A stretch of 63,511 bases of DNA, the filler included. It is 6 parts of 6 records of this genome, joined end to end, with 100 filler letters (N's around TTAATTAATTAA, not from the genome) between each part and the next. Parts side by side here need not be neighbours in the genome. Positions count along the whole stretch, not along the records: positions 1 to 18,039 come from SRR20825019_2037; 5 more parts are not named here. One strand, written 5' to 3'. Shown one piece after another: positions 1 to 18,039 of the stretch. Made by a program: the position numbers and the translations under genes. The stretch's first letter is position 1. Each line of letters begins with the position of its first letter. The notes beneath the pieces were generated by a model. It saw only the letters and a list, made by a program, of their open reading frames with translations, did no database searches and was not told where the DNA came from.

Positions 1-729
1 CCATCCGTTGGCTTGGGATGGGGAAAATGCAATCCGAAAAATCCGAAAAACCGTCGTCTGAGAAGTTCAATCCTGATCGAGCAGGCAGGTAAAAAAATCC
101 TTGTCGATGTGACACCGGATTTTCGTGAACAGGCATTGCGCCATGACATCAATCATGTTGATGCGGTGCTGTTCACACATGCACATGCTGATCATGTCCA
201 TGGCATAGATGAGCTTCGCTGGATCAATGTCGCGATGCATCGACCGATCAATATTTACGCGTCTGCCGAAACCATCTCCGACATTGATCATCGTTTTGCC
301 TATGTGTTTGAACCATTGGCCAACGGCACAGACTTTTATTACAAACCTGTGCTGATCCCGCATGTAATATCCGGGCCGTTTGAAGCGGCAGGGGTTCCGA
401 TAACCGTTTTCCTTCAGGATCACGGTTACGGTGAAACACTTGGCTTCAAAGTTGGGAAATTTGCCTATTCAACGGACGTGGTCAATTTCCCGGAAGAATC
501 TCGAGAACATCTTTACGGGCTGGATGTCTGGGTTGTTGATTGCCTTCGTCATAAACCGCATGCGACGCACGCACATCTTGAAAAAGCGTTGCAGTGGGTT
601 GAGGAATTCAAACCCAAACAAACTTACTTCACGCACATGAGCATTCTTTTTGATTACGATGAAGCAATGGCAGATACGCCGGATCATGTCGCGCCAGCGT
701 ATGATGGGCTGGTTATTGATCTGGATTGA
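1..729 (+). CDS. MBL-fold metallo-hydrolase (PhnP/YycJ-like), 5'-truncated by window edge
   Basis: THAHADHVHG metallo-beta-lactamase motif, AYSTD, HATHAHL, THMS, AYDG; frame is open from base 1. Confidence 0.9.
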   Translation, partial: PSVGLGWGKCNPKNPKNRRLRSSILIEQAGKKILVDVTPDFREQALRHDINHVDAVLFTHAHADHVHGIDELRWINVAMHRPINIYASAETISDIDHRFAYVFEPLANGTDFYYKPVLIPHVISGPFEAAGVPITVFLQDHGYGETLGFKVGKFAYSTDVVNFPEESREHLYGLDVWVVDCLRHKPHATHAHLEKALQWVEEFKPKQTYFTHMSILFDYDEAMADTPDHVAPAYDGLVIDLD

Positions 730-763
730 AGGTCGGAAAGGTTGTTCGTTCTCCTATATCACA

Positions 764-791
764 AAGTTCTATAATATATATTAGCCGCAAA
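764..791 (-). other. dif-like XerC/XerD recombination site; probable left attachment site of the prophage
   Basis: Minus strand reads TTTGCGGCTAA-TATATA-TTATAGAACTT: 11-6-11 architecture with TAA/TTA inner triplets. One arm resembles alphaproteobacterial XerD arms (TTATGGAAC-type); the other is degenerate. It lies between a host gene and the phage repressor. Confidence 0.65.
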
Positions 792-877
792 TCATGTGTT
801 AATCCGTTGCTATCCTGTTCGCTACTCTAGGGTAGGGCGCAAAATCACGTAGGATATACACAAAGGTAGGATTGCGA

Positions 878-1171
878 TCAGGCCGCAATCCCGTCCATTG
901 CTTTGTGAATATTGTCATGCATCTTAATATAATAAGTCTCGGCGTCCGTTCCTTTGGTGCGCCAGTAATTGAGGTCTAGTAAAGCCTCAAATGGATCATT
1001 GCCGCCAAGCAAGGCTAACTTGATCATTATTTCATCACCGGGCAGGCCATGCCCGCGATGATAACGCGTCATGTTGATGCTATTGATGCCAAGTTCGCGG
1101 GCGACCGCATTGTTCGAATGCAGGTTTGAATGCCGTCTGGCGTCGTCAATGTAACCGCTGATTGATTTCAT
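878..1171 (-). CDS. Phage HTH repressor (DUF3693-like, Xre fold)
   Basis: SNNAVARELGINSINMTRYHRG helix-turn-helix; GGAG RBS upstream; divergent from the phage operon and pointing toward the dif-like site. Confidence 0.7.
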   Translation of the reverse strand: MKSISGYIDDARRHSNLHSNNAVARELGINSINMTRYHRGHGLPGDEIMIKLALLGGNDPFEALLDLNYWRTKGTDAETYYIKMHDNIHKAMDGIAA

Positions 1172-1220
1172 CGCTCATATCTCCGTTTCCCGCAAAGATT
1201 GTATCTCCAAAAAAACCCAT

Positions 1221-1306
1221 TTGACAACATACGGGGAGTTGTGGAGTTCTATTTGCAAGTTGCATAGTGATACTGTGCAATGTGCGATCCGTACCCATAG
1301 GGGTAC
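1221..1306. promoter_or_regulatory. Divergent control region with candidate operators
   Basis: TTGACA at 1221; imperfect dyad TTGCATAG-TGATA-CTGTGCAA (1260-1280) overlapping an extended -10-like TGATACTGT; dyad GTACCC-ATAG-GGGTAC (1291-1306). Confidence 0.4.
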
Positions 1307-1620
1307 CCCGTTTCCCAAAGCTCGGTGCCCCGTCCGGTACAGAGGATCGCCGGACAAAGGGAAACGAAGATGACGCAATTAGAGCAAGATCAGGGCATTA
1401 CGTCCGGGCCGTGCATATCCCCTTCAAAAAAAACCAGTTCGGCGCGTATGCGTTCTTTCCGGGCACTGGCCCAAAGGACAAGCGTTGCGCCGACTGCATG
1501 TATTGCCGCGATCCCGAAAAGAAGCCGACCTGCAATATGGTTGCGGCCTTTCCGGGCCGGTACAAGTCGGGGCCGATAAAGTCGGGTTCGGCAAGCTGCA
1601 AGTATTTCCGGCAGCGATAG
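1267..1620 (+). CDS. Small Cys-rich phage protein (start uncertain)
   Basis: PGTGPKDKRCADCMYC...C...SCKYF putative metal-binding pattern; true start is probably downstream of 1267. Confidence 0.5.
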   Translation: MILCNVRSVPIGVPRFPKLGAPSGTEDRRTKGNEDDAIRARSGHYVRAVHIPFKKNQFGAYAFFPGTGPKDKRCADCMYCRDPEKKPTCNMVAAFPGRYKSGPIKSGSASCKYFRQR

Positions 1621-1628
1621 CAGTTTCG

Positions 1629-1729
1629 CCCGTGTGAGGCTGGGGAGCCAAAATTCACGGGGGTTTGGAAGGGGCTTCTGCCTCTCCACAAGTGGGGAAG
1701 GTGGTTTTTGTCAAAATTCTGCCTTCCCC
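1629..1729. other. Cluster of three hairpins; candidate single-strand origin
   Basis: CCCGTG..GGCT-GGGG-AGCC..CACGGG; TGGAAGGGGC-TTCT-GCCTCTCCA; GGGGAAGG...CCTTCCCC, all in an intergenic gap of a rolling-circle element. Confidence 0.45.
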
Positions 1730-1795
1730 TTCTAAACCTCAAGAAAACCCTCTGCGCGAAGCGCCAATTTCCACATTCCACGAGGATGACGAACG

Positions 1796-2176
1796 ATGAA
1801 CCAGCTTAAATTTTCCGATGATCGCAAGCATGCATCCGGGCAGTTCTCGACGCTGCATTTCGGCCTTGATATTGAAATTCATGCCATTGATGGCAATTGG
1901 GATAAAGGCAAGCCGCCAGTCGGCACCGGCAAAGAGCCGGGGCGTCCGGCCTATGATGTGTTCGGCGCTGGCCGGGGTGGCGCGGTCAAGCTGGGCGCGG
2001 CATGGCTCAAAACCATTCAGAACGGCCCGAACACAGGGAAGCAGTTCCTTACCATGTCACTTGATGATCCCAGCTTCCCATCAGCGTTGAACCTGTCGGC
2101 GTTCGAAGGTGACGCGCCGGGTATCTATAATCTGAAATGGGAGCGCCCGCGTCAGGCGACCCAAGATGCCGCATAA
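1796..2176 (+). CDS. DUF736-family protein (putative ssDNA-binding)
   Basis: PAYDVF...KLGAAW...FLTMSLDDPSFPSALN...LKWERP matches the DUF736 pattern; GAGG RBS. Confidence 0.75.
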   Translation: MNQLKFSDDRKHASGQFSTLHFGLDIEIHAIDGNWDKGKPPVGTGKEPGRPAYDVFGAGRGGAVKLGAAWLKTIQNGPNTGKQFLTMSLDDPSFPSALNLSAFEGDAPGIYNLKWERPRQATQDAA

Positions 2177-2555
2177 GGGCAACGAGCAAGCCGGGGTTAA
2201 CGCCCCGGCCTTTCGTATTCCAGACGGTTTTTCGCATGAGACAATGCCGATTTTTGGCGGTGCGTTCTCTCATGCGAAACACTGTTTCGTGGAATGGTCA
2301 GAAGATGGCGAGGAATACGCGGCTTTTCTGCCGACTGATCGCGCTTTCGACTGTCTGGCGGCATGTGAAGCCATGATGAAGGCTAAGAACCCGCCGATAG
2401 AGAGCGCGGAAATCTGGCCTATGTGCCGGTCTGTCACCAAAGGAAACCTTGACCGCCTTTGGAAGCAGGTGCGGCGGCTGCGTGAGCCGGGAAATCAGAA
2501 AACATGGTCAATCGAGTTTGCCCGGTTCGGGTATGGCGGAGGGTTTGAACGATAA
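2166..2555 (+). CDS. Hypothetical phage protein
   Basis: Overlaps the DUF736 stop; TAATG-coupled to the next ORF. Confidence 0.5.
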   Translation: MPHKGNEQAGVNAPAFRIPDGFSHETMPIFGGAFSHAKHCFVEWSEDGEEYAAFLPTDRAFDCLAACEAMMKAKNPPIESAEIWPMCRSVTKGNLDRLWKQVRRLREPGNQKTWSIEFARFGYGGGFER

Positions 2556-2815
2556 TGGGTGGTTGTCTTTTTACAGGTCCGGCAGGAAGTCAAAACAGCG
2601 CGAAAATTGTTTACCCGTCCGCGTGGGTGCTTGTTGATATTGACTTGAAAACTGGCGATGTCGCCGGGGTTGTGGGGCCGTTTTTCTCTGAATTTGAGGC
2701 GGATAATTTTGACCGGCAACGTGCTCAGGTGCGGTCCTTCCGTCGGACGCATAAGACGCGGATTTTTTCCGTGACATCACCATACGACGAAATGCGGAAA
2801 GGATGCGAACGATGA
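2555..2815 (+). CDS. Hypothetical phage protein
   Basis: Translational coupling on both sides (TAATG, ATGA); GGAGG RBS. Confidence 0.55.
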   Translation: MGGCLFTGPAGSQNSAKIVYPSAWVLVDIDLKTGDVAGVVGPFFSEFEADNFDRQRAQVRSFRRTHKTRIFSVTSPYDEMRKGCER

Positions 2816-2916
2816 GCGGCGTAACGATAATTGCCTTTTTCGTTGGTGTTGTGATCGGTGCGGCGGTTGTTGCTGCCGTGTTCGCGGGCATCATTGATGG
2901 CTGGTTTAACAACTGA
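2812..2916 (+). CDS. 34-aa single-pass membrane peptide (not in ORF track)
   Basis: MSGVTIIAFFVGVVIGAAVVAAVFAGIIDGWFNN; ATGA overlap with the upstream ORF; AAAGGA RBS. Confidence 0.6.
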   Translation: MSGVTIIAFFVGVVIGAAVVAAVFAGIIDGWFNN

Positions 2917-2924
2917 GGTGAAAC

Positions 2925-3185
2925 ATGGGTAACGGAATGGATGCACTGAGCCGGGAAGAACGCGAAGAAATGCGCGGTAATCGCTTTCCTGAATGTTGGT
3001 GCGTAATGGTTTCTCGGTCCAAAACCAGTTGGGGCTGGGGTGTTGTCGTTGTTTACGGGCCGGTTGCGCGGCAAGGCGCAGAGGCGCTTGAAAAGGTTTT
3101 GACTGGCGCGGGATTTTTGGCAGAAGCGGTCAAGATGTCAGGGCACACCGTTGATATTGCCGATTTGAGGAAACTGGTTGATTGA
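2925..3185 (+). CDS. Hypothetical phage protein
   Basis: GAGGTG RBS 4 nt before the ATG; fits the operon. Confidence 0.55.
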   Translation: MGNGMDALSREEREEMRGNRFPECWCVMVSRSKTSWGWGVVVVYGPVARQGAEALEKVLTGAGFLAEAVKMSGHTVDIADLRKLVD

Positions 3186-3190
3186 CGGGC

Positions 3191-3237
3191 GAAGGGGGCA
3201 TTTTTGTATCACGCCCCCTTCTGATTACAGGGTAGGG
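3191..3237 (+). other. Candidate rolling-circle double-strand origin
   Basis: Perfect 9-bp IR GAAGGGGGC-N13-GCCCCCTTC followed by TGATTACAGGG, immediately 5' of rep, where Rep_trans origins are typically found. Confidence 0.45.
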
Positions 3238-3240
3238 AAA

Positions 3241-4449
3241 ATGGATTTAATCTACGCAGGGTTTGACGGTCTTGATGTGACGTTTCAGGGAGTCATCCCG
3301 CTTCGGGCGGTTGATGCTTTCGAAGCGGCCAAGGTGGCAGCACAGGAAACCAAACAGGAAACCTTTGCACAGGTCGGCAAATTCAAGGGTCATGTTGCCG
3401 AAACCGGGGCGCGTGGCGGCTATACGTATCGGGTTGATACCGGCAATCTTGGCTTTACGTGGTTCTTTTCCAAATCCCAGAAGCGCGAAGGCTGGAATAT
3501 CCGGGTTTCCTGCAAGTCGGCAACCCTTGCGACATACGGCTTTGAGGGGGCCATAGGGCTTATGTATGCCGATCTTGAGGCCGTGGGGGCGACGGTCCTG
3601 CAAGAGGCCATTGCAAGGGTCGATTTCGCGATGGATTGGCGCATGCCCGGTGATTTCCGGCTTGATCCGCACCGCTTCGCGCTCCATGGGACAACCAAGG
3701 CCGACATGCACGGCGAGGAAATCGGGCAGCACTGGCAGAAACGTCAATGCACCGGCTTGACAATCGGTAAAATGCCGGGGCGGCAAATCTGCATCTATGA
3801 CAAGCGCCGCGATATCGTCGCCAAACGCAAAGACGAATGGTGGAAAATCTGGGGGATTGACCGGGACGAATTTGAGAGGTCCGGGGATCAGATGTGGCGC
3901 ATCGAATTGCGGGCCGGAAAGAAGCATTTAAAGGAACAATGGGGCGTTACGTCATGGGCCGATCTTCGCGCCAAATTGGGCGATATCTATGCGCATGCGC
4001 TCCTACGTATACGTTACAAGGCCCGGACATGGGATGAAGACGAAAATATCACCCGCATTGAGGACGATCATATGTGGGAACGCTGCCGGGCTGTAACGGG
4101 TGGAAGCCTGTTTGAGTACACGAGCAATTGCGGGCCGGGTGTCGTCAAACAGGTCATGCAGGAACAACAGCGCCAGACCATCGCCGCGATGATGATCGGC
4201 TTGTCAGCAAACCTTGCAGTTCTGTCCGGGGTGGACAAAGACCAGCTATGGGAATTGCCGCCCCTGATTTCAAAAATGATTGCCAGCAACATCCACGGGG
4301 AGGAAAGCGGAAAAGAGTTCAAATCGAAAATGAAGAAGGTCTATCGCCGATATGAAATCTATGACGAAGATGGAGTGATCCTAGATGAAAGAACGATTGG
4401 ACAAATTGGTGGCGGCACAGGAAGCTGCACAGAAAGCGCCTTTGTTTAA
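3241..4449 (+). CDS. Rolling-circle replication initiator (Rep_trans / RstA-like family)
   Basis: GFDGLDV, IARVDFAMD, ICIYDK (catalytic Tyr) and WRIELR motifs; ATG 3241 has an AGGG RBS (track start is TTG 3178). Confidence 0.8.
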   Translation: MDLIYAGFDGLDVTFQGVIPLRAVDAFEAAKVAAQETKQETFAQVGKFKGHVAETGARGGYTYRVDTGNLGFTWFFSKSQKREGWNIRVSCKSATLATYGFEGAIGLMYADLEAVGATVLQEAIARVDFAMDWRMPGDFRLDPHRFALHGTTKADMHGEEIGQHWQKRQCTGLTIGKMPGRQICIYDKRRDIVAKRKDEWWKIWGIDRDEFERSGDQMWRIELRAGKKHLKEQWGVTSWADLRAKLGDIYAHALLRIRYKARTWDEDENITRIEDDHMWERCRAVTGGSLFEYTSNCGPGVVKQVMQEQQRQTIAAMMIGLSANLAVLSGVDKDQLWELPPLISKMIASNIHGEESGKEFKSKMKKVYRRYEIYDEDGVILDERTIGQIGGGTGSCTESAFV

Positions 4450-4546
4450 CAAGGCCCATCTGATCGACAAAGCATTAGTCGAATTGGGCGGGCTGTTGAA
4501 CGAAATGGTCGAGCGGATCGAGCGGCTGGAAAATGGCAACCGTTGA
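4385..4546 (+). CDS. 53-aa coiled-coil protein; positional analogue of PM2 P13 (not in ORF track)
   Basis: MKERLDKLVAAQEAAQKAPLFNKAHLIDKALVELGGLLNEMVERIERLENGNR; GGAG RBS; overlaps the rep stop and the Zn-ribbon gene start. Confidence 0.6.
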   Translation: MKERLDKLVAAQEAAQKAPLFNKAHLIDKALVELGGLLNEMVERIERLENGNR

Positions 4547-4904
4547 TCCGGGCACTGTGATTGAAGTTCGCGCTTGTTCAGGGTGTGGGAACCCGGTCTA
4601 CGTCAAGGCGAACAAAAATCAGATTGCATATTACTTTTGCACACCTAACGACGACAACAACGGTCAAGGGTGTTCGCATCATGAAAAATGGGGACGGGTC
4701 GCATCAAACCAGAAATTGAGGGCGTATTGGGAAGCCAGACGCGCCCACGAGCGTAAGGGGGTTGATGATGACCGAAAAGACCGATTGGCTACCGGGAGCC
4801 AGCCAGACGAAGCCGAAAGCCGGGCCGACGAAAGCCAGCCTGAACCAGTCCACGAGCCTCAACGGGCCATCCTCGCCGGATTTGCCGAATACATCCGATC
4901 ATGA
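4533..4904 (+). CDS. Zn-ribbon protein; PM2 P14-like transcription activator
   Basis: CSGCG...YYFC...GC pattern with an acidic tail, located between rep and the ATPase. Confidence 0.6.
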   Translation: MATVDPGTVIEVRACSGCGNPVYVKANKNQIAYYFCTPNDDNNGQGCSHHEKWGRVASNQKLRAYWEARRAHERKGVDDDRKDRLATGSQPDEAESRADESQPEPVHEPQRAILAGFAEYIRS

Positions 4905-5409
4905 CGATATTGATGCGGGTGCTGAACATCTGGCGTCGTTCACGGTTGATCCGCTAGAAGGCGAGGCCGACGAATTTGGCGGGCTGGATGGCCTGTCAAA
5001 TCTGGCCGATGACAGCGGCGAATTTATCAGTTCGGACGTGTTCTTTTCGTCCTTCTGTACCGCCTTCCAGATCGGCGCATGTGTGCCGCCATATCTGACC
5101 AGCCTCAAGATTGATGACAGCGAAATGGATCAGGCGCGCGCCGCGTCCGATGCGCTGTATGATATCTGTCTTGATACACCTTCCATGCATTTCCTTGTTA
5201 AGCCCGGTGGTGTGTGGTTTCAGCGCGTTGCCGCGATTTCGGCCTTTGCCTTGCCTAAGGCAATGGGGGTTGTTTCGGAAATCAAGGCGAAGAAGGCAAG
5301 GCCGGTCAATCAATCCCCTGGACAAGATAAAAAAGCCGAAAGGGCCAAGCCGGAACCAGCCAAAGAACCGCCTGCAAATGGTGGTCAATATGACTGGGCT
5401 CCGACGTAA
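4765..5409 (+). CDS. Acidic protein with hydrophobic helices, coupled to the packaging ATPase
   Basis: AAGGGGG RBS before ATG 4765/4768; hydrophobic stretches VFFSSFCTAFQIGACV and VAAISAFALPKAMGVV; TAATG coupling to the ATPase. Confidence 0.6.
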   Translation: MMTEKTDWLPGASQTKPKAGPTKASLNQSTSLNGPSSPDLPNTSDHDDIDAGAEHLASFTVDPLEGEADEFGGLDGLSNLADDSGEFISSDVFFSSFCTAFQIGACVPPYLTSLKIDDSEMDQARAASDALYDICLDTPSMHFLVKPGGVWFQRVAAISAFALPKAMGVVSEIKAKKARPVNQSPGQDKKAERAKPEPAKEPPANGGQYDWAPT

Positions 5410-6050
5410 TGGCGGCGTTTTCAGAAGCGGGCCGGATTGGCATCTGGGGTCGATCCGGGTCCGGCAAATCGACGCGGGCAAAGCGTTTGATTGCGAAACG
5501 AAAGCGGGCCGTTGTCTTTGATCCTCAGGACGAATACCAGCACGAGCGCGGCTTTTTCCGGGTAACAACGATTGATCAGGTCCGGGCCTATATGGCGCGA
5601 AACTGGCGGCGCAATTTCCGGGTGGCTTATGTGCCGCCAGCCGGGCAGGAAATGGCCGCGCTTGATCGGCTATCAAAGTTGTTGAAAGTCGCCCAACGGC
5701 CATTTTTCGACGGGCACGACGAACGGCAAATCTGTTTGCTGGTCGAGGAAATGAACGAATGTTTCCCCGTGACAGGGATACCACGCGCATTCGGTGGGTT
5801 TGGTGATCTCTGTTCGCGGGGGCGGCATTCGGGGATTGAATTGATCGGCGTTTCACAGCGAATTGCAGAAGTCAATACCCGGTTTCGAGGTAATTGCACC
5901 GAAACTTATGTTTTCCGGCAAAAAGGGCCGCGTGATCTTAAGGCGGCAAGTGACGAGTTGGGCGGCGTGTCAACCGCAGAAATCCAAGCGTTACAGCCGC
6001 ACCATTACATTCACGAGAAAAACGGGACCATTACCAAAGGGAAAAACTGA
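5409..6050 (+). CDS. Genome-packaging ATPase, FtsK/HerA superfamily (PM2 P9/A32-like)
   Basis: Walker A GRSGSGKS, VVFDPQDEY, Walker B LLVEE, arginine finger RGRH, sensor GVSQR; only 213 aa, no TM segment. Confidence 0.82.
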   Translation: MAAFSEAGRIGIWGRSGSGKSTRAKRLIAKRKRAVVFDPQDEYQHERGFFRVTTIDQVRAYMARNWRRNFRVAYVPPAGQEMAALDRLSKLLKVAQRPFFDGHDERQICLLVEEMNECFPVTGIPRAFGGFGDLCSRGRHSGIELIGVSQRIAEVNTRFRGNCTETYVFRQKGPRDLKAASDELGGVSTAEIQALQPHHYIHEKNGTITKGKN

Positions 6051-6120
6051 AAAATCGTGAATTTTCCTACGTAAGGTAATGTAACGTTACCTAGATTTGC
6101 CGCCCCCGAAATTGCGGCGT

Positions 6121-6153
6121 AACCCGGTTGTCAGACAGGCGACCGGGTTTTTT
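6121..6153 (+). terminator. Intrinsic terminator after the ATPase gene
   Basis: AACCCGGTTGTC-AGACA-GGCGACCGGGTT hairpin followed by a T-run. Confidence 0.6.
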
Positions 6154-6180
6154 GTTTCCCCGGCTGTCACACAGGAAAAA

Positions 6181-6226
6181 GAGGGTCGGCAACGATTCTG
6201 ACGCAATCCTCCAAAATTTGCCTTAA
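6181..6226 (+). repeat. Terminal inverted repeat of a Tn3-family transposon (GAGGGTCGGC type, TnXax1-like)
   Basis: GAGGGTCGGCAACGATTC... begins 56 bp from the tnpA stop; preceded by AAAAA (candidate 5-bp target); inner boundary approximate. Confidence 0.65.
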
Positions 6227-6236
6227 CCTATTGTAT

Positions 6237-9209
6237 TTAAATTATTTTGGCGTTGTAGCTCATGGGTGAAACCTGCCGATCAAAATCAAGCGTATAATCG
6301 CCAAATCGGTTGATATGGTCCGTGCGGTATGGGGCCAGCCCTTTGAGAATATCGTGATCAATATGATGACCGCGCTCTTTGAGATCTTTAAGGGTTAACG
6401 TCATCGACTCCACATTGTGAAGAATGACCAGGTTGGCCACCAAGTGGTTATATTTGATCACCTTCCGTTGCTCGTGACGGATATTCTCGGCGATCACCCC
6501 CTCGCCGCCGAAGAACAGCCATTTCACGAACTGGTTGAACTCTTCCGTTTTGTTCGTCTCCGCATGAATGGTTCGCCGCAACTCCACGCTGCCAATGTAG
6601 TCCAGAAGAAAGGTTGTCCGAACGACCCTCCCCAGTTCCCGGAAAGCAAAGTAGAGTTTGTTCTTGAGGCTTGCGGTACCTAAACGTCGCAGTACCGTAG
6701 ACGGTGCGATTTTTCCAGCCTTAATCGATAGCGCCACCCGGAGCATGTCCGGCACATGGGTTTCAATCAGTTTCCAGTTGATAGTCTCGCTGAACAAAGC
6801 ATTGATGTGCTCATACCGTTGGCGTTTGTCAGACTTGTAGAACACCAGCTGCTTCAGATTCCGGATGCGGGGCATCAGGTTGATACCCAGCAGGTAAGCC
6901 AACCCGAAGACGGGCGCACTTTGCGCCTGAGTATCGCCATGCAAGGTGTCAGGCTGGATATCGGAGTCGTTTTTGATCAGTCCATCAAGGATGTAAATGG
7001 CCTCATAAACGCCGCAAGGAATGAAGTGGCTGAACAGCGCGATGTATTTGTCCGAGACGTGGTAGTAGCCCACCCCGCCATAGCCACCGTACCGTATGTG
7101 GTATTCCGATAGCAGATTCTGTTCGTACAGGTTCCATTTTGTGCCATCGGCGGCGGCCCGCTGGCCAGTTCCCCAGTGTCGCGGCAGCCGGTAGCGGTTG
7201 TAGGCATTGATAACCTGTACAATCGCCTGCTCCAGGCGCTCTTCGGTGACGTGCCGCAGGTTGAGCCAGGACACCTGCCGGCGATTAAGCGTCGTGATGG
7301 ATCGCGCGGTCTGAGTTGGCCCGAGATTGCAGCCATAGCAAAATAAGGTCGAAACAAAGCGGGTACGGGGGTCGTCCAGCTTGCCCTCAAATCCGGAAAG
7401 TGGCCCAAAGCGTTTGTGGAGGCCCAGCCATTTTTCGGCTTCCACCAGGATGTCGAGAATGTTCTTTTCGGGCATATTTTGGGATAACTGCTTATCAATC
7501 TCAGCTAACCCATCCGGAGGCGCTCTACGGCGGTGCTTCCGGATCACCAGATCTTCACCATGGAAGACGGCGTATTCATTCTCCGGGAAGCCACGGTCAA
7601 TGCGGTCGGCCGTTTCGCTCAACCGGGAGTGGGCTTGTACCACAAAAGCGGCTGGGTCGGATTCGATATCAATCATCGCACTGTAGTCCGCTATCTGGGC
7701 ATCATAGACACTCCAATCCACCAGCTGATCGCGGTAGTCACTGTACTGGTCGCTATTCGCGACCGCGAGATCGCCGGAAATCAGTTCACGCTTCACCTGT
7801 GTCAGTACGCCCAGCTCGAAATACTTCCGGTAGACCATCCCGGGGGGCAGCTGGCTTGGCCCGGTCCCCAATACCAAACGGCGCCAACGCTCCGGTAGCC
7901 AGGACACGTCGACGGGTTGACTACTGAGGACAAGGCATTCCTTACGGCTGTGCCGGTGCTTTTTCAGAGTCGCAATCGCCTCAATCAAAGATTGATCGTG
8001 GCTGGTTGCCGCCAGATCCAGTAGTTCAAGGCAATTGAATAACAGGGGGCGTAACGGGCGGTAGGGTTGCAGCATGAACGGGATGAAGTTATTGCCAGCA
8101 TAGGCCATGTGTTCCTCACACTCTGCCAGTAATTCATCAGGATCGCTCTGGATGGCAGCCGCCACTCGGGCACCTCGCTCGGAGTCCGTTGGCGCTTCCT
8201 GGACGGCGGTCAGTACGTCACGCAGTTGAGCCACCAGCCTGTCCATGCGTTTCATGTGATCCAGGTGATACTGGTTCAGGTTGGCTTCTGCCTTGGTTTT
8301 GATGTTGCGCATCTTGCGAACAAAGATGTCGACCGCATCGTCCATCGCGCGACGCAATTGGGCATGGACCAGCAGAACCATCAAAGCGTAGCGTTTGGTG
8401 CTTTGCATGGCCTTGATGTTGGCCGCGCCCAGCGCTCGTGCTTCCAGTATGAAGTGGTGATATTTGGCGGCGGGAATGTGATCAACAGCGGGCAATTGTT
8501 GACACCAACCCTGAAGCCATTCCAGGTGCTGAAGATACTTCTTCACTTCCGTATTGGTCGGCTTTTTGGGTTCCTGTTTCAACTTATGCCAACTGGTATG
8601 AGGGGAATCATCCGGCACTTGCAGCAACTGGTCAAATTCGTTTTTTTGATGCGCTGTCAAACCCACATTGAGCGTCCGAAAGTAACCGGTATTGACCGTG
8701 CTGCGAGCCTGACGCGCGGTCCGTTGCAACGTTGAAAAACCCGGTAACTCAAAACGCTGGCGCACCAGCTCTTCAATCACCACATTGATGATGTCCGCCA
8801 GGTCCTGCTTGGTGGTGGCCGCTTCACGCGCTAGTTCCCGTACAATTGCCTTGCCTTCAACGGTGAACGCCTTGATGCCCACCTGTTGACGAACCGTCTC
8901 CAGCATCCGCTGACGGGCGCCGCCATTGCGGTCGTAGACCCTGAGCTGGCTCAATGCGAGATGTGAAAGGTCGTCGCACGCCAGAATGTGCGTTGTAATG
9001 GATTGGGGAACGGCTTTGAGATGGACAAAGTAGCCCAGACGCTGCACTGTTTTCAGGAGAATGAGTAGGGCGCCACGAGCAGCCGGAGTTCGACCGTGCT
9101 TTCGGGCAAAGGATCGTTCCTGGGTAGAGGGTGTATAAATTTCTGCCAGTTCTTGATCCGAGACCACCGCCTTCAATCGCGGATAGGCGGTTTCATGGAG
9201 GCTACTCAT
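6237..9209 (-). CDS. tnpA: Tn3-family transposase, apparently intact
   Basis: 990 aa; HETAYPRL N-terminus; DDE-region motifs AADGT, YHIRYGGYGG, HGDTQ, TNKTEE, HINRFGDY. Confidence 0.95.
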   Translation of the reverse strand: MSSLHETAYPRLKAVVSDQELAEIYTPSTQERSFARKHGRTPAARGALLILLKTVQRLGYFVHLKAVPQSITTHILACDDLSHLALSQLRVYDRNGGARQRMLETVRQQVGIKAFTVEGKAIVRELAREAATTKQDLADIINVVIEELVRQRFELPGFSTLQRTARQARSTVNTGYFRTLNVGLTAHQKNEFDQLLQVPDDSPHTSWHKLKQEPKKPTNTEVKKYLQHLEWLQGWCQQLPAVDHIPAAKYHHFILEARALGAANIKAMQSTKRYALMVLLVHAQLRRAMDDAVDIFVRKMRNIKTKAEANLNQYHLDHMKRMDRLVAQLRDVLTAVQEAPTDSERGARVAAAIQSDPDELLAECEEHMAYAGNNFIPFMLQPYRPLRPLLFNCLELLDLAATSHDQSLIEAIATLKKHRHSRKECLVLSSQPVDVSWLPERWRRLVLGTGPSQLPPGMVYRKYFELGVLTQVKRELISGDLAVANSDQYSDYRDQLVDWSVYDAQIADYSAMIDIESDPAAFVVQAHSRLSETADRIDRGFPENEYAVFHGEDLVIRKHRRRAPPDGLAEIDKQLSQNMPEKNILDILVEAEKWLGLHKRFGPLSGFEGKLDDPRTRFVSTLFCYGCNLGPTQTARSITTLNRRQVSWLNLRHVTEERLEQAIVQVINAYNRYRLPRHWGTGQRAAADGTKWNLYEQNLLSEYHIRYGGYGGVGYYHVSDKYIALFSHFIPCGVYEAIYILDGLIKNDSDIQPDTLHGDTQAQSAPVFGLAYLLGINLMPRIRNLKQLVFYKSDKRQRYEHINALFSETINWKLIETHVPDMLRVALSIKAGKIAPSTVLRRLGTASLKNKLYFAFRELGRVVRTTFLLDYIGSVELRRTIHAETNKTEEFNQFVKWLFFGGEGVIAENIRHEQRKVIKYNHLVANLVILHNVESMTLTLKDLKERGHHIDHDILKGLAPYRTDHINRFGDYTLDFDRQVSPMSYNAKII

Positions 9210-9441
9210 ACGCAGTTCTTCGCTATGGGGTTCCAGTGAAAGGCATTAGCCCACAGTACTTTCGCTCTTGAGGGGGGCATTGCTTATAGTAGGCAGCAAT
9301 TCGTCAAGACCAAAGGAACCGCCCGTTATTTTGTGAACGCCACGCTCGCTTTACGTTACGGGATTATTCGGTCATCGATCGCCGGTTCCCCGATTTATTG
9401 AATCGTTACACCACACCGCAGACTGATTCGAGCTATGGCCA

Positions 9442-9728
9442 TTGAGCATCTTTCCCCCCCCACTGATCATTCACACCTACCAACGCCTTTCTAGTGCCCA
9501 GCTAATCGCTCTGGCAGGGACCGGGCTAACGACGGTGGCGCTGGCGCCGCTGGCCCATGACTGACGGGCGGCAGTGCGGGCCAGGTGCTCGGCATTGCGC
9601 TGGCCCTGAAGATGATTGCCTACGCCCTAATAGCACCTCTGTTTGGGGCTGTTGCCCAAAAACTTCCCCGCCGTACTCTGCTGGTCACACTGGACATTCT
9701 GAGGGCCTGCGGGGTTGCCCTTTGTCAC
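9442..9728 (+). pseudogene. NreB-like MFS transporter, 5' fragment, frameshifted
   Basis: TYQRLSSAQLIALAGTGLTTVALAPLAHD*, then in another frame GGSAGQVLGIALALKMIAYALIAPLFGAVAQKLPRRTLLVTLDILRA; matches the N-terminus of NreB-type nickel MFS exporters. Confidence 0.65.
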
Positions 9729-10189
9729 TGAGGTTTGGCAGGGGGCCCACTCTGGCTAGGGTAGGTACAAAATTTTCGCCCAACCCCTTCATGTAATGAC
9801 GCAATTAAGGGGCACGAGATATTGCCCTCTTGGGCGCAGCACCGATCAACCATGGCGCTCAGTAAAACCTCAATTTGCTGTAGCTTTTCGATCTTCCCAC
9901 GTACGTCGTGCAACTTGCGCTCCGCGAGAGTGCTGGCTTCCTGGCAGTGGGTGCCGTCTTCGAGTCGGAGCAGGTCGCTGACCTCATCGAGACTGAAGCC
10001 TAACTGCTGCGATGTTTTCACAAAGCTCAACCTGCCGATATCGCTGGGACCGTAGCGTCGAATACCCCCGAGAGGACGCTGGGGCTCAGGTATTAACCCA
10101 CGTCGCTGGTAGTAGCGGATGGTCTCAACTGAGACGTTCGCCGCCTTAGCCAGCCCCCCGATGGTCAATGAGTTCATTTCATCCGGCAT
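9725..10189 (-). CDS. merR: Hg(II)-responsive regulator MerR
   Basis: [28 protein letters not shown]; Hg-ligand cysteines in GTHC, RCC and SCPLI; divergent mer operator. Confidence 0.9.
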
Positions 10190-10194
10190 TTGCC

Positions 10195-10225
10195 TTGACT
10201 CCGTAGTTGACTACGGCCTCAAGCT
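10195..10225 (+). promoter_or_regulatory. mer operator/promoter
   Basis: -35 TTGACT; dyad CCGTAG-TTGA-CTACGG inside a 19-bp spacer; -10 position reads CAAGCT (degenerate). Confidence 0.85.
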
Positions 10226-10262
10226 TAACCTATCGAACAAGGCCGTAGAAGGTGTAATTGCA

Positions 10263-10408
10263 ATATCAGAGTTGAATTCCGAGTCACAATCCGGTCGCGA
10301 GTCGTTAATCGCAGGCGGGGTTGCAGCCTGCTCGCGTCGGCCTGCTGTCTGGGCACCTTGGCCCTGATCGCCCTGGGGGGTTCCGGTGCCTGGATCGGCA
10401 ACCTGGCG
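10263..10408 (+). pseudogene. merT: merT 5' remnant
   Basis: SGRESLIAGGVAA / frameshift / LASACCLGTLALIALGGSGAWIGNL; no ATG (ATA follows the RBS); truncated by ISL3 sequence. Confidence 0.8.
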
Positions 10409-11089
10409 AAGTCTGCGAGGTACCGCAAGTGCGCACCGCTTCGAGACACCCCGCTACCTAGGTATCGACGAGCTGTACCTGAACCGCCGCTACCTCTGCA
10501 TCCTGACCAACCTGGAGGAGCGTACCTTGTTAGACCTGCTGCCCGGTCGTCAGCAGGAGGCAGTGACGAAGCGGCTCATGAGCATGACCGAGCGCGACAA
10601 GATCGAGATCGTCAGCATGGACATGTGGAAGCCATATCGCCGTGCCGTCCAGGCGGCGCTGCCACAGGCCCGCATCGTGGTCGATAAGTTCCATGTTGTG
10701 CGTATGGCCAACGAAGCCCTGGAGAAGGTCCGCAAGGGGCTCAGGAAGGAGCTGAAGGCCAACCAACGCCGAACCCTCAAGGGTGACCGGAAGACCTTGC
10801 TGAAGCGGGCTCACGACGTCTCCGACCGCGAACGTCTCATCATGGAAACCTGAATGGGGGCCTTCCCCCAGCTCCTGGCAGCCTACGAGCACAAGGAGCG
10901 GTTCTACCACATCTGGGACTGTGCCAGCCGGCGAGATGCTGAGCAGGCGCTGGCTGCCTGGATTGACGACATCCCAGTCACCAATGCCTTCACGGAGTCG
11001 ATCAACCGGCTGGCCAAGGACAAGAACCGCGATGGCCGGGGCTACTCATTCGAGGTGATGCGGGCCCGGATGCTCTACACCACCAAGCA
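10409..11089 (+). pseudogene. ISL3-family transposase fragment (ISPpu12-like)
   Basis: LGIDELYL, SMDMW, VVDKFHVV and TNAFTESIN motifs; in-frame TGA at 10851; apparent internal deletion; cut by the Tn3 IR at 11090. Confidence 0.85.
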
Positions 11090-11127
11090 GGGGTCAGTTC
11101 ACGAAACGGAAAAAATTGTACGCTAAG
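11090..11127 (+). repeat. 38-bp Tn21/Tn501-type terminal inverted repeat
   Basis: GGGGTCAGTTCACGAAACGGAAAAAATTGTACGCTAAG: exactly 38 bp, GGGG start and CGCTAAG end. Confidence 0.9.
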
Positions 11128-11371
11128 CCTTTGGCATCAATGATATCGACACCATTTTTTCCACAATTCATAAAGTTGCGCAGTAATTAGTCGACGACTG
11201 GCCCTTGCTAAATAATTTTCATTTCAGCATGAGTTGTGCTTTAAAAATTCAATTCTGCAACTACACTCATTGGGCGAACAGAGCGAGAAATCCGCCGTTA
11301 ATTCCAATAGCGGGTACGCGAATGAATATCAGGGTAATCCCCCCATTTTTAGCGGGGTTCAAAAGTAGACC

Positions 11372-12199
11372 TTAGGCCATCATGGCCAACTTCTGTTGAG
11401 GGGTAATCCCTCCGAGTCCCATATTGGGTCGTTCGTGATTGTAGTGCCAGAGCCAGCGAGTGGCATAGTCCTGGACTTCTTCAGTGCTGTCGAACAAATA
11501 CTGCGCCAGCCAATCGTAACGGACTGTTCGGTTGTAGCGTTCAATATAGGCATTCTGCTGCGGTTTGCCCGGCTGGATAAACGCCAGCTTGATGTCTTGT
11601 TTGTCGGCCCAGGCTGACAGCTTGCCGCTGATGTACTCAGGACCGTTGTCACAGCGAATAGAGCGCGGTTTCCCACGCCACTCAATGATCTGCTCCAGTG
11701 ATCGGATAACCCGCTCTGCCGGAAGCGAGAAGTCCACTTCGATGCCAAGGCCTTCCCGGTTAAAGTCATCAATCACATTCAGCAGTCGGTAACTGCGACC
11801 GTCGTTAAGCTGGTCGTGCATGAAGTCCATCGACCAACTGTCATTGATGATTTCCGGCACGGCCAAGGGTTCAGGCTTTTCACGAACCAGGCGCTTTTTA
11901 GGTTTGATTCGCAGATTCAGTTCCAGCTCCCGATAAATCCGGTAAACCCGTTTGTGATTCCAGGCAAAGCCTTTCACATTGCGCAAATGCAGGAAACACA
12001 GACCAAAGCCCCAGTTCCGCTGGTTATGGGTCAGTCGGATCAGCCAGTCCGCGATTTCGGCATTCTCGCTGCTGAGCTTTGCCCGGTAGCGATAGCAGGT
12101 CTCGCTGATGCTGAACATCCAGCAAGCCAGGCGAATACTGACGTGCTTCTCATTGACGGCTTTCTGCGCCATCTCACGGCGACGAGACGGCTTTACCAC
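11372..12199 (-). CDS. IS3 transposase OrfB (DDE integrase core)
   Basis: WSMDF, DNGPEY and [14 protein letters not shown] motifs. Confidence 0.92.
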
Positions 12200-12459
12200 T
12201 TTTTTTCGATAGCTTCCTTGAGGATGTCAGCCTTCAATCGTTCCTCGGCATACATCTTCTTGAGCCGGCGGTTTTCATCCTCCAGCTCTTTCAAGCGAGC
12301 CATCATGGACGCGTCCATGCCACCGAACTTGGCCCGCCATTTATAAAAACTGGCGTTGCTCATGCCGTGCTCTCGGCACAGCTCCGGGACCGGCACGCCG
12401 TTCTCGGCTTGCTTGAGGATCGACAGGATCTGGCTGTCGGAAAAACGTGACTTCTTCAT
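12193..12459 (-). CDS. IS3 transposase OrfA
   Basis: [21 protein letters not shown]...[15 protein letters not shown]; ends at the AAAAAAAG -1 frameshift motif. Confidence 0.9.
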
Positions 12460-12532
12460 GCAGAATCTCCCTGCGTCTAGCTTACGGAAAATTCTACTTT
12501 TGATCACCGCTGTTTTTCGGGGGGATTACCGC

Positions 12533-12697
12533 CCGTTATCGCCAGTTCTGGCAAACCTGTTTCTGCATTATGCATTGGATCGTTGGCTGACCGTTCGTCA
12601 TCCGGATATCCCATTCTGCCGATATGCAGATGACGGAATACTGCGTTGTCGAAGTGAGCGTGAGGCTCAGTATCTGCATTCCCAGCTAGATATGCGT
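12533..12697 (+). pseudogene. Group II intron reverse transcriptase fragment
   Basis: LSPVLANLFLHYALDRW...FCRYADDG (RT domains 4-5; YADD at 12623-12634); cut on the left by the IS3. Confidence 0.82.
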
Positions 12698-12713
12698 GAG
12701 GTGGACCCAATAG

Positions 12714-13574
12714 CTATTCACAGAGATGCCCAACAAACGAGTATACTGGCCTGTGTTTGTCCAGGCTGCTCGGATAAATCACCATCAGCTCCTTGCTAAG
12801 GCCAGGCTCACTCACGGGAATAGCCACCAGACTTCCATTTTGGACCTCCTCCCGTACAGAACTTTCAAGCACCAACGATGCGCCAAGTCCGACCTTAACC
12901 GCTTGCTTGACGGCTTCGGTGCTACCCAGCTGCATAGATACCGTCGGAAATGGCCCATGCTCACCGAAGTAGGTCGCCAAAAGCCGGCCAGTGCCGGTGC
13001 CGGGTTCGCCGCCGATCAGAGCCATGTTAGACAGCGTATCGCGGTCGATATCGGTTCGACGGGCTAACGGGTGACCAGGCGGAACGATTAGAACAACGGG
13101 CTCGTTACGCCACGCCTGAGCATGGAATCCGGGTAGATCATGCCACCACTCCATAATCGCCACGTCCAGCTCACCGTCCGATAAATGCCGTGCAATAGTC
13201 GGATTGGAATCTATTACCACATCCACCTCGGGCCCTACGCCCAGCTCCTTGTAACGACGGATGTAGGGCTGGAGCATATAAATCCCAATATTGGAGCTCG
13301 CCCCAACGCGAAGTCGAGCCTCCATAATGGAAGATCTCGCCTGCTCCTCCAGCCGGAGCAGACTTCGGGCAAAAGGCAACAAGGTTAAGGCAGCCCGGGT
13401 TGGCTCACAGCCAGAGCGCCCCCTGTGGACCAATAAAACGCCAAGTTGGTTTTCGAGTTTTTGAAGGTGCTGGGACAGTGTGGGTTGTGCGATGTCCAAC
13501 TGGCGGGCTGCGGCCTGAAACCCGTTGTGGTCCAGCACCGCCACGAAACTCTTCAGCCAGACAAGATTCAGCAT
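12714..13574 (-). CDS. ptxE: LysR-family regulator PtxE
   Basis: LysR HTH ([20 protein letters not shown]); overlaps the ptxD stop. Confidence 0.88.
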
Positions 13575-14578
13575 GGGCCGCTCTCGCGGCCACTGGGATC
13601 ATTGATCGCATCATCCGGCCGCTCACCCCGAAGCACTTGCAGAATGTTCCGAGCAGCGCGTTGCTCGATAGCCAGACGCACCTGGCTGACTGCCGATCCG
13701 ATGTGAGCAGTAAACAGCGTGTTGGGGTGGGCCCTGAGCCCCTGGGCGATCTCCCTCGGACGATCTTCTCTCGCCCAATCTTCCATCTCAAACACATCAG
13801 CGGCGTACCCCCCCAACTGACCGGATTGAAGCGCTTGCAGAACACTACCCTCATCCACCACAGATCCACGGCAGGGATTGATAAGGAATGCGCCCGGTTT
13901 CATTCCTGTTAGCGTTTCGCGATTAATGGTGTGGAGGGTTTGCTCATTGAGCGCCAGTGCCAGGATCACAATATCTGACTGGGCCAGCAGCATCTTGAGG
14001 GGAGTATGGGACAAACCCAGTGCCTGCTCATGCTGCACGGGTAAACGTTCCGGCTGGGAATAGATTAAATCCGCTCCCCATCCGTTCAGGCGCTGCGCCA
14101 CCGCTTGGCCGATGGCCCCCATACCCACAATACCAATCCGTGAGCCTTCGATCCCCTGCCCATAGAAGCGTGGTGTCCAGCCAGTAAATTCACCGGATCG
14201 AACGAAGTGGTCCGCCGCCTTGACTTGTCGGGTGAGACTGATCGTCAGCCCGACCGTTAGCTCTGCAGTAGGCACGGTTAGCAAATCCGGTACAAATGTC
14301 AGCCAAACCCCATGACGCGTGCAGGCATCCACATCAAAGTTGTCATAGCCTTTCAGGGCTGCACCAATCACCTTCAAGCGCGGACACCCCTGTAGGAACT
14401 CCACTCCAACTCGGTCTGGCATGAACGCCATCATCGCATCAGCGTCTGCAACGCGCGCAGCCACTTCCTCCTGGGGCAACGTGGCGCCGGATTGGTTGGT
14501 GACCAGCTCGCAATCTTGGGCAAGTTCATCCAGAACACTGTCATGGATCTTATGGGTTATCACAACCTTGGGTTTCAT
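13568..14578 (-). CDS. ptxD: Phosphite dehydrogenase
   Basis: 336 aa; K76, R237, E266 and H292 at canonical PtxD positions; GMGAIG Rossmann motif; DVFEMEDW. Confidence 0.96.
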
Positions 14579-14587
14579 CGACGTTCC

Positions 14588-15418
14588 TTATTTGAATTTC
14601 TTACGAAGGCGGCCACTGAGACTGTCCACGACGGTGACCATCAACAAGATGACAATGAGAATGGCGCTGACTTCCTGATACTGCATGATTCTCAGCGAGC
14701 CCATCAATTCGAAGCCAATACCACCGGCACCCACCATGCCCATTACGGTCGAGGCACGGAAATTGTATTCCCAGCGATAAATGGACACGTCCGCGAATTG
14801 AGGAAGTGCTTGTGGCAGCACGGCGTGATAGAGCACCTGCAAGCGAGTAGCGCCGGCAGCATCGGCCGCTTCCACTGGCGCCTCATCTACATGCTCAATC
14901 GCTTCGGCAAAAAACTTTCCAACCATGCCAATGGAGTGAAGACCGAGCGCCAGTACGCCAGGCAACGCCCCAAAACCAACAGCAGCCACGAAGATGATGC
15001 CCATGATCAGTTCCGGGACTGAACGCAAACCGTTTAAAAGGGTTCGAGTTACTTGGAACACCACCGGATGTGGAGAGGTGTTGCGCGCAGCCAGGAATGC
15101 CAGTGGCACAGACAAGGTTACTGCAATGGCAGTACCGGCAATGCTCATCGCAAGCGTGTCGATTAACGGCGACACCCAGCTGGCCACATTGGTGAAGTCA
15201 GGTGGAAGAGATTCGCCAATGAGTGTGCCTATGGCTGGCACGCCATTGGCAAGTGTATTGAAATTGAGCAGCCCTACGTACCAACTTGCGACAAAAATGA
15301 TGAGCAGCACTAACAGCGACTGTCCGAGTTTTTTCCGCCAGCCTTTCGCGTGCTCATCCAGCACGGAGGCCGACGGGGCCGGCGACAGAGTCGCCGGTTC
15401 CGTCGTTGTATAGTTCAT
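14588..15418 (-). CDS. ptxC: Phosphite ABC transporter permease (PhnE family)
   Basis: RSVPEL, GKFFAEAIEHVD, YRWEYNFRAS; start at MNYTT with GAGGAG RBS. Confidence 0.92.
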   Translation of the reverse strand: MNYTTTEPATLSPAPSASVLDEHAKGWRKKLGQSLLVLLIIFVASWYVGLLNFNTLANGVPAIGTLIGESLPPDFTNVASWVSPLIDTLAMSIAGTAIAVTLSVPLAFLAARNTSPHPVVFQVTRTLLNGLRSVPELIMGIIFVAAVGFGALPGVLALGLHSIGMVGKFFAEAIEHVDEAPVEAADAAGATRLQVLYHAVLPQALPQFADVSIYRWEYNFRASTVMGMVGAGGIGFELMGSLRIMQYQEVSAILIVILLMVTVVDSLSGRLRKKFK

Positions 15419-15428
15419 GGGGCACTCC

Positions 15429-17134
<1,706 letters not shown>

Positions 17135-17185
17135 AGGATCACCTTTTGCAATAAATAAGCTCGCCGTATTGCGAGTTACAATTGA

Positions 17186-17230
17186 ACGGTAAAGCTGAGA
17201 GATGACACTGTCGTGTCACTGACGTGACAG
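17186..17230 (-). promoter_or_regulatory. Pho-box promoter of ptxABCDE
   Basis: Minus strand CTGTCAC-GTCA-GTGACAC-GACA-GTGTCAT (three heptamers at 11-bp period), then exactly 10 nt to a -10-like TACCGT. Confidence 0.8.
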
Positions 17231-17330
17231 GTTGATGAAGTGCTTTTGGTTCGCAAGGATTTTCCGAAGGGCTCTGTGAAATACATGGAGCTCAGCCAAA
17301 GTGGAACGAGCCACCCAGGAGCTTAAGCAA

Positions 17331-17560
17331 CAAAAATTGCGTTCCACCGTCAGTCGGCGAATCTCACGGTACAGTTCGTCCGTGCTGAGTTCATCGAATT
17401 GCTTACCGACTATACTCTTGCCTTCGAGGAGGTCGGACGCGCTCTCCAATAGGTCGCGCTTCCAGGTGCTGACTATGGTGGGGTGGATCTGGAAACGGGC
17501 AGCAATTCAAGGTGTGGCCTTAAGGGTGGGCAAGGACAGCCTTGCACTTACTAATTCGAA
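17331..17560 (-). pseudogene. Degenerate IS3-family OrfA remnant
   Basis: IAARFQIHPTIVSTWKRDLLESASDLL...DELYREIRRLTVERNF resembles OrfA HTH plus leucine zipper; stop upstream, no orfB. Confidence 0.65.
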
Positions 17561-17567
17561 ATAAAGT

Positions 17568-17996
17568 AAGCAGGGCACTGTCACCGCATCACTGATGCTG
17601 CGCAAGCTCGGGAGCTATCCGCGTCAGAATGGCCTCGCGATCGCATTGCGCGAGCTGGGCCGCATTGAGCGAACATTATTCGCACTCGACTGGATGCAAA
17701 ACGTCGAACTGCGTCGCCGCGTGCAGGTTGGTTTGAATAAGGGCGAGGCTAAGAACGCGCTGGCTCGTGCCGTCTTCCTGAACCGGCTCGGTGAACTCCG
17801 CGATCGCAGTTACGAGAATCAACGCTACCGTGCAAGCGGACTCAATCTCGTCGTCAGCGCTATTATCCTTTGGAATACGGTTTATATGGAGCGGGCGGTT
17901 CAAGCACTGCGCGAAGACGGCCGGGATATCGACGAGACGCTTCTGCGGCATCTTTCTCCCTTGGGCTGGGAGCACATCAACCTGACCGGCGACTAT
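17568..17996 (+). pseudogene. tnpA: Tn21-subgroup Tn3 transposase, C-terminal fragment
   Basis: [24 protein letters not shown]...[13 protein letters not shown]...[14 protein letters not shown]; lacks the N-terminal portion and diverges after GDY. Confidence 0.9.
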
Positions 17997-18039
17997 AAAG
18001 GATGTCAAACAACTATCCTGCTGCGCGGGATAAGGCAAG

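Follow-up and report, generated by a model that had tools for sequence, protein, structure and literature searches.

A probable Vinavirales prophage remnant at the chromosomal dif site of Thalassospira

Positions 764-6180 of the 63,511-nucleotide stretch of DNA analysed here (the window) very probably constitute the left half of a temperate, tailless, membrane-containing phage of about 10-11 kb. The phage belongs to the double-jelly-roll order Vinavirales and is integrated at the chromosomal dif site of Thalassospira. Positions 784-6180 are the regulatory, replication and packaging half of this PM2/NO16-like prophage, and the copy in the window is a remnant of a Vinavirales member, not a complete one. 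The original prediction, made from the letters of the window alone, had proposed an integrase-less, PM2-like tailless prophage in a marine alphaproteobacterium. The host is indeed such a bacterium: window 1-783 is 98% identical to the Thalassospira genome G099, which belongs to the genus set centred on the genome carrying the Thalassospira record L002. The PM2-like character is borne out by a P9-family ATPase in the window and by a P2-type capsid gene in 21 of 22 related loci. The structural and lysis genes are all missing, and this copy could not form virions.

Counts of tailless membrane-containing phages in marine bacteria are too low, and prophage finders miss these phages. The Thalassospira elements are of a known kind without a classified close relative. 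The suggestion that they may form an undescribed alphaproteobacterial lineage is outdated, since alphaproteobacterial Vinavirales prophages are already described in PMC9502842 and PMC10589892. The window copy, dead and lying next to a mobile cluster for phosphite oxidation, carries little direct biological weight. At this locus, homology to prophage-free sister genomes breaks off within dif, which makes it an unusually clean junction at which to consider the published hypothesis that Vinavirales without an integrase integrate by way of host XerCD. A difference in attP polarity between sister Thalassospira phages is the one feature that might be worth an experiment.

The P9-type ATPase and the capsid genes of related loci

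The gene at 5409-6050 (+) encodes a 213-aa FtsK/HerA ATPase of the P9 genome-packaging type. Its best PHROG match is phrog_2666 (6.6e-24), and the same region of this profile is also matched by P9 of PM2 (2.6e-50), NO16 (6.6e-26) and Jorvik (7.7e-17). BLASTP relates the protein to its counterparts in NO16 (5e-20, 35% identity), Jorvik (5e-8) and PM2 (3e-7, 23% identity over 184 residues), and the four motifs that had been attributed to P9 align with the PM2 protein. The Pfam family DUF87/HerA is matched at 26.4 bits (cut-off 23.2). A tblastn search of phages with the ATPase returned only NO16-like corticoviruses (11 records); neither this search nor the one with the relatives' capsid retrieved a PM2 record at E 0.01.

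The ATPase family comprises 291 proteins at E ≤ 0.001, and its source names include Thalassospira, Kiloniellaceae and several Rhodobacteraceae. Many of the contigs carrying these homologs are 9-10.5 kb long. A scan of species-representative genomes with the ATPase yielded the 22 related loci, and a scan of IMG/VR yielded 4 loci. The ATPase of the closest locus, L002, is 77% identical to that of the window and is followed by a small open reading frame (ORF) and then by a 272-aa protein. This protein matches Pfam P2_N (3.9e-18) and P2_C (2e-17), the PDB entry 9t9v, named 'double jelly roll capsid protein' (4.1e-19), and PM2 P2 (2vvf, 3.9e-9). A P2-type capsid gene was found by tblastn downstream of the ATPase in all loci except L021, which stops at the ATPase. 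Further downstream, L002 encodes a lysin of the SleB-type Hydrolase_2 family (2e-23), and a holin of the gene transfer agent type is present in L020. The spans between attachment sites in the relatives measure 8.5-11.4 kb. In the phage cycle that we envisage, the P9-type ATPase would package the DNA into a capsid of the P2 type found in these relatives.

Truncation at a Tn3-family transposon end

DNA homology to L002 continues past the ATPase gene and through a conserved intrinsic terminator (6121-6149, +; a 12-pair stem followed by a T run) to window 6157. The terminator is the last conserved phage feature before the break. The end of a Tn3-family transposon occupies 6181-9209 (-), with its terminal repeat beginning at 6180/6181 and tnpA at 6237-9209 (Pfam DDE_Tnp_Tn3, 1.4e-145). 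Two plasmid copies of this element, one on a Marinobacter salarius plasmid (97.6% identical) and one 90.1% identical, start matching at window 6181 and 6180, respectively. PMC1950889 places the late-promoter region between genes IX and II. The transposon end thus falls in the late-promoter region of the phage, directly past the ATPase terminator. An imperfect palindrome between the ATPase stop codon and the terminator (window 6060-6100) is kept in L002 at 3060-3100; it may be a late-promoter or origin element.

Everything from P7/P2 to attR is missing from the contig. A tblastn comparison of the whole window with the 13 proteins that L002 encodes downstream of its ATPase gave no match, and no capsid, spike or lysis gene is present anywhere in the window. 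The capsid gene is absent because the prophage is truncated at 6180/6181, and the copy therefore cannot make virions. At most, the remnant could still express its repressor and Rep.

It is possible, although we consider it the less probable course of events, that the prophage is whole but split. The Tn3-family element and its cargo would then have inserted between the ATPase gene and P7/P2, and the structural half and attR would lie beyond position 18039. The break coincides exactly with the transposon terminus, and an N linker closes the first contig at 18040. A search that allowed up to 3 mismatches in 30 recovered no second Tn3 terminal repeat in the window, and none is among the inverted repeats of positions 1-20000, which places the other end of the element out of view. 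Against such an insertion stands the lack of any structural gene in the 63.5 kb. The DNA past the transposase is, moreover, a mosaic of a MerR gene (9725-10189), two ISL3 transposase fragments (10386-11126), an IS3-type orfA/orfB pair (11372-12507) and a plasmid-type phosphite cluster. Rearrangement or deletion fits this arrangement as well as insertion.

The phosphite cluster itself (12531-17998, -) is a ptxABCDE-like phosphite/phosphonate cluster that encodes a LysR regulator, an ABC transporter and a 336-aa 2-hydroxyacid-type 'phosphonate dehydrogenase'. Plasmids of Marinobacter, Salmonella, Klebsiella and Citrobacter match it at 99.8-99.9% identity.

Attachment sites at dif and their polarity

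The chromosomal flank of the prophage carries a gene for a metallo-β-lactamase (MBL)-fold hydrolase (13-729, +; Pfam Lactamase_B_2, 1.5e-35). A 28-mer dif sequence characteristic of the genus lies just downstream of this gene in 10 of the 12 Thalassospira loci retrieved with it, and in prophage-free Thalassospira genomes nothing intervenes between the gene and dif. The corresponding site of the window, attL (764-791, +), is a hybrid of dif and attP. It matches the first 20 bases of the genus dif, with identity in the XerD-side arm, through the central TATATA and in the three bases after it; phage sequence stands in place of the XerC-side arm. The arms are named after Table 1 of PMC2731167, and the one retained is similar to the XerD-side arm of dif in Agrobacterium and Mesorhizobium. 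Homology to the prophage-free Thalassospira genomes G099, G084 (92%) and G068 (81%) ends at window 783. The genome of L002, G062, is unusable as an empty site, since its MBL gene does not adjoin dif. An initial dif pattern taken from Kiloniella loci had no match in the window at up to 2 mismatches; the dif of Thalassospira differs from it.

Both junctions can be read in relatives. Direct repeats bound the prophages L020 (Kiloniella spongiae; 19 nt) and L003 (18 nt). In each, the right repeat is a complete dif-like 28-mer, and the left one keeps one arm and the central hexamer before running into unrelated sequence. L002 likewise has a full dif at its structural end, and 16 of the 22 loci have a full dif-like site 6.0-7.8 kb downstream of the ATPase. 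A left partner that shares the central hexamer exactly is present in L003, L020, L005, L008 and L013 (2 or fewer mismatches in 17) and in L007, L009, L012, L015, L016, L017 and L023 (3-4 mismatches in 17). Left-right pairs of dif sites are also present in L048, described below.

Consistent with the predicted lack of an integrase, integrase Pfam families are absent from the 10 window ORFs scanned and from 20 flank ORFs of L002, L003 and L020, where divergent recombinases below Pfam sensitivity are possible. Integration would then depend on the host. The attP site appears to mimic one dif arm and the central hexamer, which would allow host XerC/XerD to insert the phage; the repressor end is then left with a degenerate hybrid and the structural end with a full dif. 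The anatomy of the sites is visible in the sequences, and the involvement of XerC/XerD is what we infer from it. The same conclusion is already in print for NO16 (PMC9966536) and Jorvik (PMC10589892).

A protein of 139-170 aa with a C-terminal resolvase-type helix-turn-helix (HTH) adjoins the full dif in L002 (8135-8647, -), L003 (16330-16749, -) and L020 (15864-16289, -). It has no match to DUF3653 and may be a directionality or Xer-accessory factor. An Amylibacter contig carries dif-like sites at L013 835, 6844 and 16139, together with two ATPase-bearing elements, L018 lying about 22 kb away. This arrangement looks like a tandem insertion at dif.

The ATPase is present in 3 of 37 Thalassospira genomes. 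One of them, G083, holds a complete prophage (L048) with the whole structural module and a Rep that shares 88% identity with the window protein. The L048 prophage is inverted relative to the chromosome, with attachment sites at 7385-7412 and at about 18323-18350. A full dif again abuts the structural end, and the hybrid at the repressor end keeps the XerC-side arm. Because this hybrid retains the other arm, attP polarity in L048 is the reverse of that seen for the window and L002. The XerD-side arm is kept by the window, L002, L003 and L020, and the XerC-side arm by L048 and the Rhodobacteraceae loci; the orientation of the prophage at dif inverts with the polarity of attP. No such flip is described in the portions of the Vinavirales literature that were available, and the difference between sister phages may be new.

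It is conceivable, and we put it forward tentatively, that the elements of Thalassospira, Kiloniella and Rhodobacteraceae form an unclassified family-level lineage of Vinavirales. Such a lineage would combine a CTXphi-style module (a divergent repressor, Rep_trans and a dif-mimicking attP) with a double-jelly-roll capsid, and the polarity of its attP would flip between sister phages. If true, near relatives among these phages would follow two distinct Xer strand-exchange pathways, and the conserved small HTH protein beside attP could be an Xer-activating or directionality factor.

Early genes, replication and relation to known phages

The genes that the original prediction had listed for the left half of the element (a regulator, a run of overlapping ORFs, a rolling-circle initiator, a 53-aa gene, a four-cysteine gene and the ATPase) were all recovered at their places. 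The 97-aa HTH regulator (878-1171, -) is divergent from the early operon and matches phrog_638 'transcriptional regulator' (2.4e-10) and phrog_4441 (1.5e-7). Homologs occupy the same prophage end in L003, L020 and L048, and the one in L003 matches Pfam Phage_CI_repr (9e-6). The protein is likely the lysogeny repressor, which would keep the early operon off.

The early operon begins with a DUF736 protein gene (1796-2176, +; Pfam 8.6e-12) and a 129-aa gene (2166-2555, +). The DUF736 protein has a 62.5% identical homolog at the same position in the complete prophage L048 and another homolog in L019. The 129-aa protein matches no family in Pfam, PHROG or NCBIfam, the three collections used for all window ORFs, and has a 62% identical homolog in L048. 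Since L048 holds homologs of both, the early genes of the window are phage genes. Two further ORFs of 86 aa each (2555-2815 and 2925-3185, +) have no family match and no homolog in the loci searched. The genes of the + strand overlap at their ends, as expected from the proposed coupling of the small ORFs. Terminase and tail families, like integrases, were not found among the 10 window ORFs, in agreement with the original prediction; in a truncated copy, the absence of terminase and tail genes is uninformative on its own.

The Rep gene (3241-4449, +) encodes 402 aa from the ATG at 3241, or 423 aa from 3178, the start of the longest ORF. Pfam Rep_trans (PF02486) is matched by 12 of 30 aligned Rep homologs (best 4.2e-9), and Phage_CRI by 2 of the 30. 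No match to Rep was found by tblastn in phage records, and there is no similarity to PM2 P12 (best E 0.76). When a profile of the Rep homologs was searched against PDB sequences, the only matches were to a designed helical repeat (E 0.0044) and to 4cij (E 0.67). A fold search was needed to place the protein. An AlphaFold2 model built on the homolog alignment reached a mean predicted local distance difference test score (pLDDT) of 86.6. Foldseek placed 4cij first (1.2e-9), with 4cwc (1.1e-7) and 4cwe, all of them rolling-circle initiators; TATA-binding proteins rank after these. The 4cij and 4cwc matches come with a template-modelling score of 0.54 on the target. Residues R126, D128, D132, Y186, K188, R220, E222 and R224 are invariant in 30 sequences and include an R-x-E-x-R motif. 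Y186 may be the counterpart of the catalytic, nicking tyrosine of RepC/RepD. The fold confirms the predicted rolling-circle initiator: Rep has a Rep_trans fold and probably the corresponding activity. Upon induction, the early operon would supply this initiator, which would nick the circular double-stranded DNA (dsDNA) and start rolling-circle replication.

Between Rep and the ATPase, the gene order can be compared with that of the PM2 record, P12-P13-P14-gp h-P9-P7-P2, which agrees with the order given for PM2 in the original prediction. The position of P13 is taken by a 53-aa gene (4385-4546, +), whose homologs occur only in L002 and L048. The position of P14 is taken by a four-cysteine zinc-ribbon gene (4533-4904, +) with homologs in 13 of the 22 loci; its cysteines C15, C18, C36 and C47 are conserved without exception across the 13 homologs aligned. 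A comparison of these products with their PM2 counterparts had been proposed. It was clear for P9, weak for P14 (BLASTP E 0.018 with the cysteines aligned; hhalign E 2.5e-4 at 43% probability) and without significant similarity for P13 (E 0.22). The zinc-ribbon match is suggestive of a P14 equivalent and is not proof of one; a role as late-gene activator is possible. With its 53-aa neighbour, the protein would probably switch on the late operon in the way of P13/P14 in PM2, as its position and weak homology suggest. The next gene (4762-5409, +), the positional counterpart of PM2 gp h and Jorvik Gp6, encodes a 215-aa protein with homologs in 16 of the 22 loci and no family match. It had been labelled a membrane protein, which its hydropathy does not support: the best 19-residue Kyte-Doolittle mean is 1.48, under the usual 1.6.

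Several observations weigh against the assignment to Vinavirales. The viral identity rests on homologs elsewhere, the window being devoid of structural genes, and the right half of the prophage is either deleted or past position 18039, where the contig ends. Pfam, PHROG and NCBIfam give no match for the window Rep itself, and the equivalences to P13 and P14 are weak. The left sites of L009, L015 and L016 carry 4 mismatches in 17, and a chance match of this kind is estimated for about 1 locus in 8. The ATPase was found in none of 61 genomes around G001, but this negative is uninformative, since G001 has no match to positions 1-900 and resembles the window only in its unrelated low-GC part.

A filamentous prophage or satellite of the CTXphi/RS1 type, in which the repressor, the Rep_trans protein and a Zot-like ATPase would form an inovirus module at dif, is highly improbable. 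The regulator has a weak match to the repressor RstR (E 0.0028, far below the cut-off), Rep_trans proteins also occur in filamentous phages, and Phage_CRI is matched by the two Rep homologs mentioned above. The element sits at dif without an integrase, the ATPase matches Zot at E 0.041, and one source labels an ATPase homolog 'zonular occludens toxin domain-containing'. However, the Zot match of 13.8 bits is below the cut-off of 20.3, and the ATPase belongs to the P9 PHROG family. In the relatives it is followed by a double-jelly-roll capsid gene, and no inovirus coat family is significant, the only coat-family match in L002 being Phage_coatGP8 at E 0.17. The Zot/pI ATPase and coat genes of Inoviridae are thus lacking. 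The outcome that the original prediction had named as refuting it, an ATPase of the Zot/pI, VirB4 or plasmid FtsK group and intact relatives with no capsid gene downstream, was not obtained, and the viral reading stands. A fragment of a plasmid or of an integrative and conjugative element, suggested by the DUF736 gene, the initiator, a VirB4/TraG-like ATPase (an NCBIfam VirB4-type match confined to the P-loop, E 6.9e-6, 24 bits against a cut-off of 590; TrwB, 14 against 20.5) and the adjoining plasmid-like transposon DNA, is the least probable reading, as all matches to conjugation families are far under their cut-offs, DUF736 lies between the dif sites of the complete prophage L048, and the relatives show synteny with capsid, spike-region and lysin genes.

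The CTXphi-type integrative mobile elements exploiting Xer (IMEX) do share features with the prophage: both sit at dif without an integrase of their own and combine a divergent repressor with a Rep_trans-type initiator. The att sites are derived from dif at the window attL and at both junctions in relatives, and no recombinase was recognised among the ORFs scanned. The prophage differs in that the virion module of the relatives is an icosahedral double-jelly-roll capsid instead of a filament, and in that the attP anatomy is read from dsDNA junctions only.

Within Vinavirales, the closest description is that of clade A of PMC9502842. This paper presents the largest Vinavirales clade as mostly alphaproteobacterial, without cultured members, with SleB-type lysins, with replication genes that are often replaced (also by Rep_trans) and with orphan ORFs upstream of rep. 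The Thalassospira elements agree with clade A in their alphaproteobacterial hosts, the order ATPase-small gene-P2, the SleB-superfamily lysin of L002, the variable replication genes including Rep_trans and the short orphan ORFs upstream of rep. The window copy departs from it in lacking the whole structural half. In PMC10589892, 849 prophage hits with P9 and P2 are reported from Alpha-, Beta- and Gammaproteobacteria, and Jorvik-like prophages without integrase and with dif-like att sites are abundant in Alphaproteobacteria. Five Vinavirales families are now on the ICTV list, according to PMC12451628. When the literature on Vinavirales, Corticoviridae and double jelly-roll viruses was searched for the genus, Thalassospira did not occur in the main texts among the matches listed; the supplementary prophage lists of PMC10589892 and PMC9502842 may include it.

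By its ATPase, the closest classified phage is the Vibrio phage NO16 of the Asemoviridae. NO16 is about 10.6 kb long, circular and temperate; the main text of PMC9966536 mentions no integrase and describes dif-like sites, for which integration by XerCD was proposed. Its host is gammaproteobacterial, and the window Rep is without counterpart in NO16 as in every other phage record. Beside the 35% identity of the ATPase, the relatives' capsid is 26-29% identical to that of NO16, and such low values would suggest a different family.

The Rhodobacter phage Jorvik (Mestraviridae) shares the alphaproteobacterial host, the lack of an integrase, dif-like attP/attB sites with a proposed role of XerCD, and the P9 homology. 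It differs in its 212-aa replicase, in an ATPase on the strand opposite the capsid operon, in a 328-aa capsid that is only locally similar, and in its integration in the RuBisCO operon (PMC10589892) instead of the chromosomal dif. Neither the window nor L002 follows the Jorvik plan of a short replicase and reverse-strand packaging.

Finally, the Pseudoalteromonas phage PM2 (Corticoviridae) has in common with these elements the order Rep-small gene-zinc ribbon-further gene-P9-P7-P2, extended by the P2 homology of the relatives, and P9 homology over 184 residues. Unlike the prophage, PM2 is lytic, its P12 Rep is unrelated and its P13 is not detectably similar. The signature of Corticoviridae in the strict sense, a P12 Rep with close P2/P9 similarity, is not present.

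Outside the prophage and the transposon DNA, the window contains a run of N's at 18040-18139 with a central TTAATTAATTAA six-frame stop linker. The guanine-plus-cytosine (GC) content is about 0.55 before this run and about 0.32 after it. The run joins two contigs, and with G001 matching only the part after it, the window is read as a Thalassospira-like contig concatenated with one from an unrelated organism of low GC. The low-GC part holds two very long ORFs, one of 2754 aa (43939-52203, +) and one of 1465 aa (52196-56593, -).

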